Shown: one piece after another, positions 7,914 through 44,677 of the stretch
How the letters are laid out: every line of letters begins with the position of its first letter
Position numbering within the stretch: position 1 is the stretch's first letter
Translations under genes and position numbers: made by a program
Assembly (NCBI GenBank): GCA_963835125.1
Contig: CAWIEG010000011.1
Location: 16,769-80,768, forward strand
From: an uncultured Acidobacteriaceae bacterium
GTDB lineage: Bacteria; Acidobacteriota; Terriglobia; Terriglobales; Acidobacteriaceae
Length of the DNA stretch: 64,000 nt
Direction: 5' to 3'
Notes under the pieces: generated by a model
What the model was told of the DNA's origin: nothing
What the model saw: only the letters and a program-made list of their open reading frames with translations
Databases searched by the model: none

Positions 7914-7943
7914 CTTGAACGCGGCGCTGAAGCGCCGCACTAC
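7914..7943. repeat. REP-like element, family 2 (CTTGAACGCGGCGCTGAAGCGCCGC)
   Basis: 30 nt, differing at one position from 12144-12173. Contains the palindrome gcggcgct-gaagcgccgc. Confidence 0.75.
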
Positions 7944-7979: not shown

Positions 7980-9293
7980 CTAGGTCGCTTCTTCGACCGA
8001 ATAGATGGTGAGGCCGCTCAGCATCTTGGGATAGAAGTCGGTGGATTTCTGCGGCATCACTCCGCCGGCGAAGGCGATATCGCGCATCTGCTCGATGCGC
8101 ACTGGATTCATCAGGAACGCCACTTGTGCGGCGCCGCTGCGCACCGCTTCGATTGCTTCTCTGCCGTCGCGGATGTACTTCAGATGCTTTTGCGCGCGGA
8201 TGTCCTCTTCCGACATGCCGAGGATTTCCTCGAGCACCAGCTTGTGCAACTGCACCACGTCGAGTTCGCCCTGCTGCGCCGGCAGATCCTTTAGTCGCGC
8301 GGGATTCACGTCTTTACGCGCGCGCAGCAGAAATCCGCCGTGCGCCGTTACGGCCAGCAGTGCTGTACGGTCCTTGCCGGCGTCGTGCAGCCGGCGCACG
8401 GCCTCGTGAGCGTCCGTCACGGGGCCCACATCCTCAATCTCAAAATACTCCCGTAGTTTGGAAACCATCTCGAAGATGCTGAAGTTCTCCAGGCCAAAGA
8501 CCACGCGGTGAGTGGGCAGGATCACGAGGCCGGGCGCATCCATATTGACGAAGGTGATGACGACACGTTCATAGGGAGCGTCAAGATTGCCATTCGACTG
8601 CTGCCGCATCTGATTGCGATAGTTGAGAGCGGTTTCGTAGCGATGGTGACCGTCGGCGATGATCAGCTTCTTGTCGGCCATCTTAGCCTTCACTGCCGCG
8701 ACGGTTGCCGGATCGGAGACCTTCCACATCTGGTGCAGCACACCGTATTCGTCGCGCAACTCGATGGTGGGCGGCGTGCCCTGCTTCAGCAGCTTGGCCA
8801 CCTCGTCCGCGGGATCGCTGTAGAGCATGAAGATCTGCTCGCAATGCGCCTGCGTCGCTTGCAGAAGATTCAGGCGGTCGGCCTTGGGCTTGCTCAGCGT
8901 CTGCTCATGACGGAAGACCACTTTGCGATCGTAGTCTTCGACGCGGCCCAGAGCGATAAAGCCGCGCCGTTCCGCCTCGGCTCCGGTCGAATCGCCGGGA
9001 ATCTTGAACCGCTGCACATAAACGTAAATGCTGGGTTCAGGGTCACGATGCAGAACGCCCTCGGCTTGCCATAGTCGCAAGCTGGCCGCGGCCCGGGTGT
9101 ACACGTTCTCGTGATCGTTGTCGCCCGGCTGGGACTTGCCCAGAATGATCCGCACCAGGTTGTAAGGACTGGCGGCGTAATACTGGTCCTGCATCGCTGG
9201 AGTGATTTTGTCGTAGGGCTGAGTCATTACCTCGCCCGCGGTAACTTTCGAAGGATCATAGCGAAGAGCGCGAAAAGGAAGTATGTCTGCCAT
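7980..9293 (-). CDS. DUF1015 domain-containing protein
   Basis: MADILPFRALRYDPSKV...MTQPYDKITP...YNLVRIILGK...IADGHHRYETAL is the DUF1015 signature. ATG at 9293 was chosen; the ORF extension upstream runs through a REP element. Confidence 0.85.
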   Translation of the reverse strand: MADILPFRALRYDPSKVTAGEVMTQPYDKITPAMQDQYYAASPYNLVRIILGKSQPGDNDHENVYTRAAASLRLWQAEGVLHRDPEPSIYVYVQRFKIPGDSTGAEAERRGFIALGRVEDYDRKVVFRHEQTLSKPKADRLNLLQATQAHCEQIFMLYSDPADEVAKLLKQGTPPTIELRDEYGVLHQMWKVSDPATVAAVKAKMADKKLIIADGHHRYETALNYRNQMRQQSNGNLDAPYERVVITFVNMDAPGLVILPTHRVVFGLENFSIFEMVSKLREYFEIEDVGPVTDAHEAVRRLHDAGKDRTALLAVTAHGGFLLRARKDVNPARLKDLPAQQGELDVVQLHKLVLEEILGMSEEDIRAQKHLKYIRDGREAIEAVRSGAAQVAFLMNPVRIEQMRDIAFAGGVMPQKSTDFYPKMLSGLTIYSVEEAT

Positions 9294-9318
9294 AAGGTCC
9301 CCGTTCCTGAGACGCAGA

Positions 9319-9417
9319 GTTGTCGGCCTTGTATTCACCACGGAGGCACCGAGGACACGGAGTGACTGAGACTTGAGAATCCTCCGCGCTCTCCGTGCCT
9401 CCGTGGTGAGCCGACAG
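9319..9417. repeat. REP-like long inverted repeat, family 5 (TCACCACGGAGGCAC...)
   Basis: Left arm tcaccacggaggcaccgaggacacggag (9335-9362). Right arm ctccgcgctctccgtgcctccgtggtga (9382-9409). Flanked by tgtcggc/gccgaca. Confidence 0.7.
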
Positions 9418-9565
9418 GGCCTCGGGAAGGCTGATTGTAGCAACTGGAATCAGGAAACCAGAATGACGTGAATCACATCAAAACGTTCAGCCGGGGGCGG
9501 CGAGAAGGGGCTAATTCGGTGGCCGCAACCTGTGATAACATTCTGCACACGCTCTAAAGGATCCT

Positions 9566-11849: not shown

Positions 11850-13709
11850 ATGCAACGACTGGCCGAGCTGTGCGAGCGCATCGCCGGAACCACCAAGAAG
11901 ACCGAGAAGGTCGCGCTTCTGGCCGAGTACTTTCGTTCGCGCGAGTTGCCAGACGCGGCGATTTCCGCGGTCTTTCTTTCCGGACGCGCCTTTCCCGCAT
12001 TCGACGAGCGCACGCTGCAAATCGGCGGATCGCTGTTGTGGAAGCTGGTGGTCGAGCTTGCGGCAGCACAAAACGCAGGCGCCGAATCAGAACAGCAGAT
12101 CCCTCGCCGGTTAAAACCGGCTCGTGATGACAAGAAAAAAGAGCTTGAACGCGGCGCTGAAGCGCCGCTCTACCTGAGTGCGACATCTGCGCTGGACGCG
12201 GCTTATCGCCAGCGCGGCGATCTGGGCGCGGCCGCCTATGATGTCCTCCTGGCGAAAGCGCCGGCCTCGCCGACCATCACCCTGCGGGACGTTCGCGCGA
12301 CGTTCGACCAGATCGCCGAGACCCGCACCGCGACCGCGAAGGCCGCCGTCCTTAAGGCGCTGCTGGAACGCGCGACCGCACTCGAAGCCAAGTACATCCT
12401 GAAGATCATTACCGGCGAGCTGCGCATTGGCCTGAAAGAAAGCCTCGTGGAGGAGGCGATCGCCAAGGCCTACGACGAACCTATCGGCCGCGTGCAGCGC
12501 GCCAACATGCTGCTGGGCGATATCGGCAAGACGTTGCAACTGGCGGCCAAGCACCGTCTGGACGAAGCGCGCATGAGGTTGTTTCATCCCATCGGCTTCA
12601 TGCTGGCGAGTCCCGCGGCAGACGCGGAGGAGGCGTTTCAGTATTTCGAGCACGCGCTGGTGGAGGACAAATACGACGGCATTCGCGCCCAGGCGCACTG
12701 CGGCGGCGGACAGGTGCGGCTGTTCTCGCGAACGCTCGACGAGCTGACGCCGTCCTTTCCGGAGCTGGTAGGGCCGTTGAGCGAGTTTGCCGGCGAGGTG
12801 GTGCTTGACGGCGAGATCGTCGCCTGGCGCGATAACCAGAATGGCGGGCGCGGGGTCCCCGGCGCGCCTGCGGTTAGGCCGATGGGGTGGGGGCACGCGA
12901 TGCCTTTCGGCGAACTCCAGAAGCGCCACGGTCGCAAACAGATCAGCAACCAACTGATCGCCGAAGTGCCGGTCGCCTATGTCGTTTTCGACGTGATTTA
13001 TGCGGGCGGCGAACTCATGCTCGACAGGCCGCTTTCAGACCGCGCTCGGGTCCTGGACCGCGTGTTTGCTGGCGCGAATCGGATCGCGCCTCGTGCCGCG
13101 GTCAACCCGCAAGGCAAGCTGTTCGACTCGCCGATGGACGAAGCCGTGTCGGGATGGGTGTTGCGCGCGCTGTCGCTGCGAGCGGACTCGGCGGAGCAAC
13201 TCGAGCGTTACTTCGAGCAGGCGATGGCTCGCGGCAACGAAGGCCTGATGATCAAGGACCTCGAGTCGCCCTACATGCCGGGACGGCGTGGCCGGTGGTG
13301 GCTGAAGCTGAAGCGCGAACTGGCGACGCTGGACGTCGTGGTCACCGCCGCAGAATTCGGACACGGCAAGCGCATCCACGTGCTTAGCGATTACACCTTC
13401 GCAGTGCGCCAGGGCGAGGAACTGGTCAATATCGGCAAGGCGTATTCAGGCTTGACGGACAAGGAAATTGCCGAGTTGACCGAGTGGTTTCTGGCGCACA
13501 CCACGGCCGATCACGGGCATCTGCGCGAGGTGGAACCGAGAATTGTGCTGGAGGTGGCGTTCAATGCCATCATGCGCTCCGACCGGCACGATAGCGGGTT
13601 TGCCCTGCGATTTCCCCGCATCGTGCGCGTGCGGCAAGACAAGCTGCCGGAAGATATCGACACCGTGGAGGCGGTGGAGCAGATATACAGGCGGCAGCAT
13701 GGAAGATGA
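11850..13709 (+). CDS. ATP-dependent DNA ligase (Lig1/Cdc9-like, with N-terminal DNA-binding domain)
   Basis: EDKYDGIRAQAH (adenylation Lys motif), LDGEIVAW, EGLMIKD, WLKLKRE, and an OB-fold C-terminus ...LRFPRIVRVRQDK. Intact ORF of 619 aa, longer than usual because of internal repeat-derived segments. Confidence 0.9.
   Translation: MQRLAELCERIAGTTKKTEKVALLAEYFRSRELPDAAISAVFLSGRAFPAFDERTLQIGGSLLWKLVVELAAAQNAGAESEQQIPRRLKPARDDKKKELERGAEAPLYLSATSALDAAYRQRGDLGAAAYDVLLAKAPASPTITLRDVRATFDQIAETRTATAKAAVLKALLERATALEAKYILKIITGELRIGLKESLVEEAIAKAYDEPIGRVQRANMLLGDIGKTLQLAAKHRLDEARMRLFHPIGFMLASPAADAEEAFQYFEHALVEDKYDGIRAQAHCGGGQVRLFSRTLDELTPSFPELVGPLSEFAGEVVLDGEIVAWRDNQNGGRGVPGAPAVRPMGWGHAMPFGELQKRHGRKQISNQLIAEVPVAYVVFDVIYAGGELMLDRPLSDRARVLDRVFAGANRIAPRAAVNPQGKLFDSPMDEAVSGWVLRALSLRADSAEQLERYFEQAMARGNEGLMIKDLESPYMPGRRGRWWLKLKRELATLDVVVTAAEFGHGKRIHVLSDYTFAVRQGEELVNIGKAYSGLTDKEIAELTEWFLAHTTADHGHLREVEPRIVLEVAFNAIMRSDRHDSGFALRFPRIVRVRQDKLPEDIDTVEAVEQIYRRQHGR
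12098..12173. repeat. Composite REP insertion inside the ligase ORF (family 1 copy 12098-12133 plus family 2 copy 12144-12173)
   Basis: gatccctcgccggttaaaaccggctcgtgatgacaa followed by cttgaacgcggcgctgaagcgccgctctac. Translated in frame as IPRRLKPARDDKKKELERGAEAPLY. Confidence 0.7.
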
Positions 13710-28127: not shown

Positions 28128-28218
28128 CAGCGCCGCTGGCGCGGAATAGTCTAGCCCAGCACGCAGCGAAGCGGAGTGCTGGGTAGGTTCGATAACGAAT
28201 CCGAGTCCCGTAGGGACG
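28128..28218. repeat. Tripartite REP-like element, family 3, inside the rplM-rpsI spacer
   Basis: cagcgccgctggcgcgg, then agcccagcac...gtgctgggt hairpin, then ccgagtcccgtagggacgg. Parallels 17192-17283. Confidence 0.7.
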
Positions 28219-41064: not shown

Positions 41065-43257
41065 CTAGGCGCGCAGCACGCCGCCCAAGGCTTCCAACCC
41101 GGCGATGATCTGCGCGGACCACGCTGCCACCGCAAGGTCGAGCAACGTGCGCTCCTGGGATTGGAACTCGGCATGAAGTAGGACGGAATATTTCCCGGCG
41201 CCGACTTTCTCGCCCCGATAGATTTCTGCAGGAACGAAGCTCTGCAATTCAGCCAGGCCTAACTCCCCGATAGCTGACTGGATCCGCTCGAAGGTAATCG
41301 CGTCATCGAAGACGAAAGAGAAATCCCGCTCGACAGCCGGGAACTTCGAGATGCGCTGATAGCGCGGTTCGTGCAGCGGATGACGGTAGAGCCGGTCGAG
41401 CATCACCTCAGCGATATAGACTTGCTGCCGAAGCTTGCGCGTTGCAGCTTGCTCGGGATGCAACTGGCCGAAAACCGCAACCGTCTCCCCATTCATCACG
41501 GCTCGCGCCGAACGCCCAGGATGAAAGTAAGACGGCGTGTTGGAATCGAACTCAAGCGAACTGTGTTGAAACGCCCCGAGCAGTTTATCGAGGTCGCCCT
41601 TCATGTGAAAAAAGGTGTACGGCTGCGCGGCGCTGTGCATGCTCTTGGGGATGAGGTCGCCGGTAGCTGCGAAGCCAAGATGCCGCCGTTCGTCGTGACC
41701 GTCGCCTAGCTTCTGAAAAACTTCGCCGGCTTCGAATAGGCGGACGTTCGTTGTCCCACGGTTCAAGTTGTAGCTCACCATGTTGATGAGGCCGGGCAGC
41801 AGCGACGTGCGCATGTAGGCCGACTCTTCGTTCAGCGGATTGGCCACCGCGAGAGGCGCGGGCGCAGGCATTCGGGCTGGGCTTCCTGATTCGGGTGCCC
41901 CACTCAAGCCGGTTTTGCTTGAGTGGGGGTTTTCGTCGAACATTAGGAAAGCCTTCGCTTCTTCTTTCGAGACGAACGTAATCGAGATTGCCTCGTCGTA
42001 TCCCAGCGCCAGCATAATTCCGCGAACTCTCGCGTTCTTCGGCTCATCCGGCAGGTCGATTACGGCACCGGAGAATCCGGGCAAGGTGTTGGGAAAGTTG
42101 TTGTAGCCGTAAATCCGCGCCAGCTCTTCCAGCAAATCGACCTCACGCTCGATGTCAAGCCGCCAGGTGGGCACTTGCACGCTGAAGTCGGCGTTCGTTG
42201 CTACAGAAGAATTGTCATCCCGAGCGGACCCCGAGCTTGCCGAGGGGGGAGTCGAGGGACCTGCTTTTTCGTTTTCCCCGGCGCAATGGTGTAACCCGAA
42301 GCCAAGTCTTCGCAGGATGCGTTCGATCTCGCCTTCTGAAATCTCGATGCCGAGATTGCGCTTAATCTCCGAACGGTGTAGCGGAATGGGTGGCCGATCC
42401 AGCTCGCGGGCTACGGCGTCGATGCGCCCGCCATGCAACTCGCCGCCGGCACTAGCCAGAATCAGCTCGGCCACGCGATCGCTAGCCAGCGGAGTGATGC
42501 CGTAGTCGGCGCCGCGCTCAAAACGATGCGAGGCGTCGGTGTGCATACCATGGCGCTTGGCCATGCTCCGGACCGTCGCCGGATCGAACCACGCCGACTC
42601 AATCAGGACGTTCTTCGTCCGCTCGGTGATCATGGTGTCGAAGCCGCCCATTACGCCCGCTAGGGCGACCGGCTTCCTGGCGTCGGCGATGACGAGGTCT
42701 TCGGTTGTGAGCTTGCGGTCGACGCCGTCGAGCGTCTTTAGCACTTCGCCTTGGCGGGCGCGGCGGACGATGATCGTATGGCCCTCCAGCAGATCGAGAT
42801 CGAAAGCGTGCGTGGGATGGCCGAGCTCGTTCAAGGCGTAGTTGGTTGCGTCGGCGACATTGTTGATGGAGCGCGAGCCCACTAGCTCAAGGCGCTTGGC
42901 GATGTTCTCCGGCGAAGGGCCGATCTTGACATTGCGCACGATGCGGGCCGTATACCGCGCACAACCTTGCGCGTCTTCGATCACGATAGGGAAGTGTGCG
43001 TCGCCCTTGATTGCGGGCAGCTTCGGGTCAACGTTTTTCAGCTCGAGATCGTAGATGGCCGACGCCTCACGCGCCACGCCATAATGATTCATGGCGTCGA
43101 CACGGTTGGTGGTCAGGTCCATTTCGTACACGGTCGAGCCATTTTCTTCCTGGACAGACTCCACCGCGATCCCCGCCGAAGTCAGGTCTTCGGCGAGTTG
43201 GCGGTCGTCAGCCGCAACGTCAACGAACTCACGCAGCCATGCGGGAATGATCCTCAC
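41065..43257 (-). CDS. pheT: Phenylalanine--tRNA ligase beta subunit
   Basis: [14 protein letters not shown]..., B3/4 and B5 domains, ...[28 protein letters not shown]..., and a FDX-ACB-like C-terminus. Intact 730-aa ORF containing a repeat-derived segment. Confidence 0.93.
42213..42264. repeat. REP-like element, family 1, inside the pheT ORF
   Basis: tgtcatcccgagcggaccccgagcttgccgaggggggagtcgagggacctgc. Translated on the coding strand as [18 protein letters not shown]. Confidence 0.7.
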
Positions 43258-44460: not shown

Positions 44461-44677
44461 CCCAGCGCTGAAGCGTTGGGCTATCATCTTCCGTCTCGCT
44501 GCGCGAGACTGGTTCCAGCTCAGTTCAAATGCGCCGCGCCATTCCAAGGTTCTTTGTATCGGGCGCGTTCTGGAAGGGCACGGCTTCAGCGGTGCCGCGG
44601 GTTTCACCCCGAGTCTCCTCAGGGGCTAAAGCCCAACTCGTTTTAATGTCGATGCGGCACGGCTAAAGCCGTGCCCT
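44461..44677. repeat. Cluster of REP-like hairpin elements (families 7 and 4) in the rplT-pheS spacer
   Basis: cccagcgctgaagcgttggg-ctatcatcttccgtc (44461-44495). gggcacggcttcagcggtgccgc (44576-44598). gcggcacggctaaagccgtgccc (44654-44677). Confidence 0.65.

Follow-up and report, generated by a model that had tools for sequence, protein, structure and literature searches.

The DNA ligase gene of this locus raises the question of how two different palindromic repeats come to lie within one intact reading frame, and whether they reached it separately or together. A sequence-only reading of the window (the whole stretch of 64,000 nt analysed here) had placed REP-like elements of two families at 12098–12133 and 12144–12173, inside an intact 619-aa ORF, and both repeats are found there as quoted. 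The explanation that we favour, with a probability of roughly 0.8, is that the gene holds one in-frame repeat composite (12075–12185), made of a lone arm of a GIY-YIG element and of a GTAG REP located 17 nt downstream. It draws on observed repeat identity, absence from orthologues, an intact frame, RAYT and GIY-YIG genes flanked by the repeats, and covariation of the hairpins. The features are listed in table 1.

Table 1. Coordinates of the ligase gene, its inserts and related repeat copies within the window
Feature	Position	Strand	Basis or remark
ATP-dependent DNA ligase gene, Lig1/archaeal type, three domains, 619 aa	11850..13709	+	ORF intact
In-frame insert, 111 nt, 37 codons (residues 76–112), AGAESEQQIPRRLKPARDDKKKELERGAEAPLYLSAT	12075..12185	+	Missing in most orthologues
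Module A (family 1), single terminal-inverted-repeat arm from a GIY-YIG mini-element	12090..12133	+	Repeat match, covariation
A-rich 17-nt spacer between the hairpins	12134..12150	+	Genome-wide modal spacing
Module B3 (family 2), GTAG-tagged REP	12144..12177	+	Stem-loop, GTAG tag, copies, RAYT
Second in-frame insert, adenylation domain, 15 codons (residues 333–347), GRGVPGAPAVRPMGW	12846..12890	+	Degenerate GGGGTCCCC...GGGGTGGGG hairpin copy
Intergenic B3 copy	7914..7943	+	29/30 positions identical to the ligase copy
Module A variant inside pheT, in the translated frame (20 residues)	42211..42270	-	Reads ...GSARDDN...

The Ligase Gene and Its Inserts

The host gene is a Lig1-type ligase by its DNA-binding, adenylation and OB domains (Pfam matches to DNA_ligase_A_N, PF04675; DNA_ligase_A_M, PF01068; and DNA_ligase_A_C, PF04679) and by its KxDG active-site motif, present as EDKYDG, in which K274, D276 and G277 are invariant. 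The best solved homologue of its translation, which includes ...QQIPRRLKPARDDKKKELERGAEAPLY..., is the archaeal ligase 3GDE (E = 5.6e-82). The alignment with 3GDE is broken at query residues 76/113, and the residues of the 3GDE chain on either side of the break adjoin; the segment is likewise missing in archaeal ligases of solved structure, and both archaeal and eukaryotic homologues lack it. An insert-sized gap of this kind had been expected among orthologous ligases, and it is present in 18 of 21 orthologues from the same genus and in 45 of 59 distinct orthologues from Korobacteraceae, leaving 14 species that carry an insert. The segment absent from orthologues corresponds to the whole insert of table 1, with junction peptides ...QNAGAESEQQIPR and GAEAPLYLSATSALDAAYR, and the repeat similarity spans 12084–12177, slightly wider than the coordinates first quoted. 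We found neither a target-site duplication nor a clean empty-site junction at the ligase insert, and the residues that flank it have diverged too (ELAAAQN vs ELTGARD).

The ligase stays intact despite the insert. Because the composite comprises a whole number of codons and the ligase frame coincides with its sole stop-free sense frame, an intact ligase with an extra loop is what would be expected. The 111-nt composite is open in just two of six frames, and family 1 copies have one or two open sense frames, never three, along with two or three open antisense frames per copy; these figures fit the proposal, made from the sequence, that only stop-free frames survive. In an AlphaFold model, residues 77–102 have a pLDDT of about 30 (below 50) between helices 60–79 and 104–122, and the remainder of the DNA-binding domain reaches about 90. 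The low value of the insert is partly an effect of alignment gaps at that position, and the model is poor beyond the DNA-binding domain (mean pLDDT 57). As had been anticipated, the insert, whose peptide is strongly charged, is probably made as a hydrophilic, disordered surface loop of 37 residues between two helices of this domain. The open frame kept in 14 species suggests that it is translated, and the loop may be neutral.

At the level of nucleic acid structure, only two local hairpins stand out in the folds of the insert, the folding energy of the whole being ordinary when compared with shuffles (z = -0.7 as RNA, -1.3 as DNA). No Rfam family scored above threshold on the insert; SNORD44 and other weak Rfam matches in 12000–12300 were attributed to chance, and two matches to Acido-Lenti-1 in the window belong to another repeat.

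The ligase gene contains a second in-frame insert, located in the adenylation domain. It is found in 10 of the 59 distinct orthologues, including two (L084 and L039) in which it is not clearly the same peptide, and corresponds to a gap in 3GDE and to residues 329–350 of the model, with pLDDT below 50. A blastn search of the genome with 12798–12954 returned this segment itself only, and a pattern search recovered four genomic copies of its hairpin family.

Two Hairpin Modules and Their Associated Genes

Both repeat families had been taken for REP-like elements; this holds for family 2 but not for family 1. The inner hairpin of the family 1 repeat, hereafter module A, pairs 12106–12111 with 12116–12121 and is enclosed by the outer arms ATCCC and GTGAT. 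The whole genome holds 212 copies of module A (pattern ATCCCTC-N(8-40)-TCGTGATGACAA), and the exact family 1 32-mer is unique in the window even though the family is large. Stems covary in 8 of 11 pairs, with 44 cells changed on both sides, a result reached by 0 of 500 shuffles and for which slid controls gave low values. The same signature forms a terminal inverted repeat of ~45 bp around small GIY-YIG nuclease genes. At C4:82098-82519, for instance, a GIY-YIG ORF (C4:82147-82458) lies between two perfect 45-bp arms, and inverted repeats flank all five small GIY-YIG genes of this genome (G000) and 29 of 30 GIY-YIG loci in 22 genomes of the genus, most of these repeats showing the signature of module A or a variant form. 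Module A is thus not a classical REP but a GIY-YIG element's terminal inverted repeat, and no other repeat in the genus is as common as the one that bounds these tiny nuclease elements.

These mini-elements measure 430–460 bp and encode a GIY-YIG nuclease of ~100 aa, a class of small proteins for which NCBIfam has no model. One orthologous intergenic site, 3' of the same upstream gene, contains a full element in G000, G008 and G010; in G005 only a remnant is left, and G003, G014, G009 and G002 have an empty site. Comparison of two element junctions gave no clear target-site duplication, and the palindrome may extend to GAATTGTCA...TGACAATTC. The ligase has one arm only (12090–12133), not the two of a MITE; back-to-back pairs of module A occur at other positions, such as C7:87891/87995 and C12:60494/60564.

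Family 2, or module B3, has the short palindrome (20–40 bp) and the stem-loop that characterize REPs, with a 7-bp stem (12151–12157 with 12162–12168) and a TGAA loop seen in both RNA and DNA folds. The CTAC at 12170–12173 is GTAG on the minus strand, and all close copies terminate in [AT]CTAC. The intergenic copy at 7914–7943 differs from the ligase copy by one mismatch, as first reported, and no such match occurred in 100 dinucleotide shuffles; its intergenic position, between the stop of the gene at 7980–9443 (-) and the probable start of its neighbour, was confirmed. Genome-wide, 20 copies of B3 are found at three or fewer mismatches of a 24-mer, mostly between genes. Three real genes contain B3, namely the ligase and the Lhr helicase genes (both among the 20, the Lhr copy being identical to that of the ligase over 29/29 positions) and the gene of a Type ISP enzyme, whose copy is more diverged; remaining copies are intergenic or inside doubtful ORFs. 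Elsewhere in the genome, a RAYT gene (C2:1335631-1336242, minus strand) lies between inverted B3 copies at C2:1335687-1335698 (-) and C2:1336235-1336246 (+), and its protein reaches 114 bits with NF047646 (REP-associated tyrosine transposase), for which the cut-off is 80. B3 is a genuine REP of the GTAG type, and this RAYT is its cognate transposase.

The view that these are two separate elements did not hold up. The 17-nt spacer that separates the hairpins in the ligase is the modal spacing of the genome from module A to the next hairpin (16–18 nt), and 70 of the 212 module A copies are followed, in the next 90 nt of the same strand, by a B-type core whose distance is mostly constant. Perfect hairpins occur 15–21 nt downstream of 23% of module A copies, compared with 5% in random 60-mers and 2% upstream of module A. 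One genomic position, C2:1815423-1815482, can be aligned with the ligase through both modules (60 nt at 88%), and a pair made of an A-like repeat and B3 is also present, in identical frames, in Lhr and in the Type ISP enzyme. Given the modal spacing and the fixed A-to-B order and orientation throughout the genome, the two families are parts of a single recurring composite and not independent insertions.

A census of ORFs, as called for by the sequence-only reading, found the repeats in frame in about ten further bona fide genes, including those of Der, RNase R, RNR, QueA, PheT, CopA and Lhr. In pheT, Pfam domains of PheT are found on both sides of the repeat copy, whose ARDD reading is common to the ligase, as had been pointed out. 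In-gene candidates in HolB, AhcY and an M16 peptidase were discarded, the copies being upstream of the true start, as were others located in spurious antisense ORFs; this sorting was done by visual inspection of the translated open frames.

History of the Insertion Site

All 14 carriers have their insert at the identical ligase site, in the same orientation and frame. In 13 of them module A keeps its orientation, its frame and a core length of 38 nt, the copy of L074 being degenerate. Carriers are patchily distributed on the ligase tree, and the nearest relative, L003/G005, has no insert (support 97/95). The insert needs at least 3 changes on the ligase tree and 10 on the ML topology, many inner branches of this gene tree being weakly supported, and an AU test rejects a single clade of the first three carriers (p-AU 0.0004). 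From these changes and the AU rejection it follows that a single old insertion must invoke losses or recombination. The inserts themselves vary in their stem (six variants, which differ by compensatory changes), in the type of their second hairpin and in length (25 to 74 aa), and the peptide 3' of module A varies freely in both length and sequence. L001 and L047 have in common a rare stem, GCCGGT/ACCGGC, which in this genome is confined to the ligase copy among the 42 listed copies of that length class. In L040 the stem is half-compensated, with a C·A pair that places it between two other stem variants. At the aligned position of B3 the 13 other carriers already have a hairpin, and this genome is the only carrier in which it is a GTAG REP, which suggests that the second hairpin was swapped here.

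In the scenario that we propose, the composite would be tolerated between two helices of the N-terminal DNA-binding domain. Module A and a downstream hairpin would have occupied this exact site in several Korobacteraceae lineages. Later remodelling may have altered stems without breaking their pairing, added hairpins and tandem repeats, and removed the composite or replaced it with another allele. In the present lineage, the genome's own GTAG REP would then have replaced the second hairpin, via gene conversion or transposition. We infer this order of events, as we do the assignment of an enzyme to each module. Much more tentatively, family 1 may be the footprint of undescribed, very small mobile elements, whose single arms would form, with RAYT-type REP hairpins, modular composites that spread through Korobacteraceae into permissive loops of essential proteins. 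To this speculative extension belongs the possibility that the ligase-site hairpin remained paired through six compensatory variants, its partner module being exchanged; such a combination would imply that in-gene and intergenic copies still exchange sequence by gene conversion, or that selection acts on the structure of DNA or RNA within a coding sequence.

The patchiness of the carriers could alternatively reflect an insertion hot spot, where independent composites landed at the same codon boundary and where the copy of this genome is its own recent event, not an inherited one. The insert-free L003/G005 and the rejection of a single clade speak for this, as do the diversity of stems, second hairpins and lengths and the near identity of the B3 part to other copies in the same genome. 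We nevertheless find it doubtful, if possible, since module A is so uniform in orientation, frame and core length, the rare stem is shared by L001 and L047, and the L040 intermediate fits a change made in place; many inner branches of the gene tree are, besides, weakly supported. That two unrelated elements became neighbours by chance, through separate transpositions, seems improbable. The two modules do differ in sequence and in associated gene (GIY-YIG for A, RAYT for B3), and their pairing at the ligase is limited to this genome, so that the B3 part at least came, or was swapped in, later. However, their order, orientation and spacing are the genome norm, the pair recurs in Lhr and in the Type ISP enzyme in the same frames, and, as the 13 other carriers already have a hairpin at the aligned position, a swap inside an existing composite is a better fit than a second hit by chance.

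We give slightly less credit still to a co-option of the loop, whereby the charged peptide or the mRNA hairpins would serve the ligase (for instance by binding DNA or a partner, or by controlling translation or the stability of the mRNA) and be kept by selection. The persistence of an open in-frame insert in 14 species, the compensatory changes that keep the hairpin at the orthologous site and the strong charge of the peptide are compatible with such a role. On the other hand, the majority of orthologues do without the insert, the peptide 3' of module A is free to change, and the same repeats are found in about ten unrelated proteins; moreover, templated mutation in quasi-palindromes can maintain perfect hairpins, selection not being required. 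As for the segment being ancestral ligase sequence lost by most orthologues, or its likeness to repeats being fortuitous, solely its presence in 14 species points that way. Its absence from archaeal and eukaryotic homologues, and DNA matches to intergenic and in-gene repeats of the same genome that shuffles never produced, refute this idea, whose probability is negligible; the hairpins also belong to families with nuclease or transposase genes of their own.

With the composite in the ligase, as we read it, Korobacteraceae (Acidobacteriota), a free-living soil lineage, join the few bacteria known to carry palindromic repeats in essential proteins, and following a single insertion site through 59 orthologues shows gain, remodelling and loss of such inserts. 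Inserts of this sort inflate protein lengths, split domain matches and yield spurious "hypothetical proteins" in soil MAGs; peptide signatures like QIPRxLKPARDDK, GAEAPLY and ENPHSSKxGLSGAP may help annotators to recognize them. The GIY-YIG elements, if mobile, would make up a novel type of transposable or homing element in bacteria and could be what drives the intragenic inserts. Their link to the repeats is the more novel lead: a literature search of limited scope, which cannot prove novelty, found no published description and nothing relevant on GIY-YIG genes with inverted repeats or MITEs.

Comparison with Known Systems

Rickettsia palindromic elements (RPEs), as reportedly described by Ogata and co-workers in 2000, are located in frame in many housekeeping genes, which stay intact. 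These inserts are thought to be translated and to lie on protein surfaces. The ligase insert is similar in that a palindromic repeat lies in an open ORF and is missing in orthologues, but it belongs to another phylum and to a free-living soil lineage, is probably unrelated in sequence, combines two types of hairpin in a modular structure, and has candidate mobilising genes (RAYT and GIY-YIG) in its genome. We therefore claim a likeness in behaviour and not membership of RPE-1 to RPE-8, given the different host phylum and associated genes. MITEs are also known in frame inside genes, with enterobacterial, Coxiella and cyanobacterial examples, as non-autonomous derivatives with terminal inverted repeats that keep ORFs open and add peptide. 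The ligase copy is likewise a terminal-repeat derivative that adds a peptide segment to an open ORF, but it is single-armed and the associated gene encodes a GIY-YIG nuclease instead of a DDE transposase.

The BIMEs of enterobacteria are mosaics of REP-type hairpins with characteristic spacers that recur in the genome; they are extragenic and their REPs alternate in orientation (PMC2817692). The composite shares with them its mosaic of hairpins, its characteristic spacer and its genome-wide recurrence. Its order, however, is fixed (A then B, on the same strand), one of its modules is a transposon-like terminal repeat, and instead of alternating in orientation the B-type cores share the strand of module A, hairpins being enriched downstream and not upstream.

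Intragenic GTAG/CGTC REPs were described by Di Nocera, De Gregorio and Rocco (2013, BMC Genomics 14:522; PMC3733652). According to the relevant parts of that article, these are short GTAG-tagged stem-loops, mostly intergenic, some of which lie wholly within ORFs, where they add 20–30 residues; they often form dimers or groups, are over-represented in replication and repair genes, and have among their hosts tRNA synthetases and the DNA ligase of Opitutus terrae, and RAYT genes are flanked by REP. For Koribacter versatilis, the same parts report tyrosine-transposase genes with long inverted repeats ("TIRYT"), one of them with a matching repeat family, and make no mention of intragenic copies. 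The suggestion that an RPE-like process operates in a different phylum is borne out as regards an in-frame insert in Korobacteraceae, but intragenic REPs outside Rickettsia had already been published, and the ligase insert adds to a kind known since 2013, DNA ligase included. With the REPs described there it has in common GTAG stem-loops in ORFs, a REP-flanked RAYT and a ligase as host. It differs from what those parts describe in that the host is a member of Korobacteraceae (Acidobacteriota), that the insert has here been traced over 59 orthologues, and that the REP has as its partner a terminal repeat from a GIY-YIG element, which is not a REP.

Ligase insert and its absence from orthologs

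The window (C11:16769-80768) belongs to a genome of 4.87 Mb in 13 contigs, whose named relatives are Candidatus Korobacteraceae/Terriglobales MAGs from peat and soil. The sequences and peptide quoted in the sequence-only reading were found inside its ATP-dependent DNA ligase ORF, which encodes a three-domain protein of the Lig1/archaeal type (PF04675, PF01068, and PF04679 all matched) with an invariant KxDG lysine and an archaeal ligase, 3GDE, as best solved relative (E = 5.6e-82). In six-frame searches of 40 relatives, almost every genome of the same genus gave a ligase alignment split between query residues 76 and 113, where the DNA on either side of the split is adjoining. Protein and DNA alignments identified 18 of 21 same-genus orthologs without the intervening segment. 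Once 80 further loci had been added, it was missing from 45 of the 59 distinct orthologs; 3GDE has no counterpart either, its alignment breaking at 76/113 between adjoining chain residues. The segment is an insert, and the insert-sized gap anticipated by the sequence-only reading exists. In an AlphaFold2 model computed from an alignment of 42 orthologs (weak past the DNA-binding domain; mean pLDDT 57), insert residues 77–102, for which a surface loop had been expected, form a low-confidence stretch (pLDDT about 30, vs about 90 for the remaining DNA-binding domain) between helices 60–79 and 104–122.

The same ligase contains a second in-frame insert, found at this site in 10 of the 59 distinct orthologs, two of which (L084 and L039) do not clearly carry this peptide; in other species, very similar peptides occur at two further ligase positions (around aa 209 in L017/L072 and aa 286 in L114). 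Elsewhere in the window, the Rfam model Acido-Lenti-1 (gathering cut-off 37 bits) matched at 28129-28183 (minus strand, 40.1 bits) and 44461-44510 (plus strand, 37.5 bits); at the former, what the "sRNA" model picks up may be a dispersed repeat.

Features of the ligase, its repeat modules and related loci (bare positions, window; C-prefixed, contigs of the same genome)
Feature	Position	Strand	Description
ATP-dependent DNA ligase ORF	11850-13709	+	619 aa
In-frame insert AGAESEQQIPRRLKPARDDKKKELERGAEAPLYLSAT	12075-12185	+	37 codons, missing from most orthologs
Module A	12090-12133	+	212-copy genomic family
Module B3	12144-12177	+	GTAG-tagged REP, 7-bp stem, TGAA loop, CTAC end
Second in-frame insert GRGVPGAPAVRPMGW	12846-12890	+	15 codons, GGGGTCCCC...GGGGTGGGG hairpin family
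Tyrosine transposase gene	C2:1335631-1336242		inverted B3 copies on both flanks
Y1 tyrosine-transposase genes	C1:269263-269841, C1:572237-572857, C2:75932-76483, C2:1593897-1594379		plus seven IS200-like genes
A-like hairpin + B3 composite	C2:1425896-1425919	-	Lhr-type helicase, 1521-codon ORF; reads SRRLKPAQNDFAMLGRGAEAPLY
In-frame module A	C1:263337		Der/EngA
In-frame module A	C1:319865		RNase R
In-frame module A	C2:374922		LarC
In-frame module A	C2:1325944		NuoM C-terminal tail
In-frame module A	C2:1592396		Type ISP restriction enzyme
In-frame module A	C3:248712		class II ribonucleotide reductase
In-frame module A	C9:118323		QueA
In-frame module A	C13:24126		copper P-type ATPase
In-frame module A			PheT, among the ~10 host genes

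Two repeat modules forming one composite

The insert holds two repeats, modules A and B3, both labeled REP-like in the sequence-only reading. The label is appropriate for B3, a GTAG REP, and not for module A, which is a GIY-YIG-flanking inverted repeat rather than a classical REP. The 212 genomic copies of module A follow the pattern AAAAGCAG-ATCCCTC-hairpin-TCG(T/G)GATGACAA. Among 39 copies of equal length, the proposed pairing is satisfied in 90% of cells (vs 78% in shuffles) and both sides have changed in 8 of 11 pairs; none of 500 shuffles attains the score observed, and slid controls are low. All five small GIY-YIG genes of this genome lie between inverted repeats of the module A sequence or a variant, one of them (C4:82098-82519, locus L119:1452-1873) being a 104-aa ORF between two perfect 45-bp arms. 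When the genus was surveyed in 22 genomes, 29 of the 30 small GIY-YIG genes (L120-L148 besides L119) had flanking inverted repeats, mostly with the module A signature, which is that of the genome's most abundant repeat, or a variant. The units measure 430–460 bp, with a nuclease of about 100 aa between inverted repeats each about 45 bp long. One orthologous intergenic site has the full element in three genomes, only a right-arm remnant with a hairpin in another, and no element in four more. We found no description of GIY-YIG genes flanked by such repeats in the literature searched.

Module B3 has 20 close copies in the genome; as claimed, the copy at 7914-7943 is intergenic and differs from 12144-12173 at one position (no matches in shuffles). 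The product of the transposase gene flanked by inverted B3 copies scores 114 bits against the NCBIfam REP-associated tyrosine transposase model (cut-off 80). Several of the 12 Y1-transposase matches in this genome have distinct flanking hairpin families of their own, and many REP or TIR systems therefore coexist in one genome.

The modules are indeed of two different types, as had been noted, but with recurrent order, strand, and spacing they are one composite in the ligase, not two separate hits. In 70 of the 212 module A copies, a B-type hairpin core (B1, B2, or B3) lies within 90 nt downstream on the same strand; perfect hairpins start 15–21 nt downstream of 23% of copies (vs 5% of random 60-mers) and are found upstream of 2%. 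The spacing in the ligase is 17 nt, and C2:1815423-1815482 aligns over both modules (60 nt, 88%).

Repeat copies inside genes

The genome-wide census called for by the sequence-only reading placed about 10 of the 212 module A copies in frame inside genes, ligase included, in both orientations. The Pfam domains of these genes either flank the copy or lie shortly upstream of it, and are stretched or split around the inserts. This share is far below expectation, taking typical bacterial coding density rather than that of this genome as reference, as would be the case if most in-gene hits were lethal or if insertion favored intergenic sites. Module A copies have one or two open sense frames, never three, and two or three antisense ones; the ligase composite has two of six frames open, just one of them in the sense direction, and this is the frame the ligase uses. 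These counts support the proposal that only stop-free frames survive. The composite in the Lhr-type ORF uses the same frames (SRRLKPAQND...GRGAEAPLY), its B3 part being identical to the ligase copy at 29 of 29 positions, and two DNA-repair genes therefore share it; a related A-like + B3 pair lies inside the Type ISP restriction enzyme gene. PheT also contains a second in-frame repeat of another family (41893-41934, minus strand; a 14-residue peptide from CCCCACTCAAGCAAAACCGGCTTGAGTGGGGCACCC), of the hairpin type flanking the transposase gene C1:572237-572857; RNase R carries a peptide of this type as well.

History of the ligase site

An insert of 25 to 74 aa is present at the same codon boundary in 14 of the 59 orthologs. 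Thirteen begin with module A in identical orientation, frame, and 38-nt core (L074 is degenerate), followed by a hairpin and sometimes more hairpins or tandem repeats. In L048, L107, L086, and L044, it is enlarged by tandem repeats reading AEEVTAANRRR/AEEETG, which suggests that the heptad-type tandem arrays present elsewhere in this genome also expand within coding sequence.

Carriers are scattered over the ligase tree, the nearest relative, L003/G005 (support 97/95), having no insert. At least three insert changes follow from well-supported branches, and 10 from the ML tree; that the first three carriers form one clade was rejected (p-AU 0.0004). Such a distribution might reflect recurrent insertion at a hot spot, which, with orientation, frame, and core shared among carriers, we regard as possible but rather unlikely. 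From these sequences, we read the insert as old and inherited, remodeled, and sometimes lost or replaced via recombination. The stems show six fully paired variants and, in L040, a half-compensated C·A state; the stem GCCGGT/ACCGGC is common to this ligase and L047 and occurs in none of the other same-length copies listed for this genome. Templated mutation in quasi-palindromes could keep stems perfect without selection. B3 was probably swapped into the site from the genome's own REP family because, among the 14 carriers, this genome alone has B3 as second hairpin, the other 13 having a GGCACGCC-TGAA-GGCGTGCC-CTTTCAA type at the aligned position.

The sequence-only reading took in-frame palindromes to be extending here beyond Rickettsia. 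They do occur in this acidobacterial lineage, but it is not the first: GTAG and CGTC REPs lying wholly within ORFs were reported from several phyla, with enrichment in genes for replication and repair and with the Opitutus terrae DNA ligase and several tRNA synthetases among the named hosts (Di Nocera et al. 2013, PMC3733652). In the parts of that study considered here, Koribacter versatilis is treated only for tyrosine-transposase genes between long inverted repeats. Because intragenic REPs, including one in a DNA ligase, were described there, the phenomenon is already known, and what is new here is the lineage.
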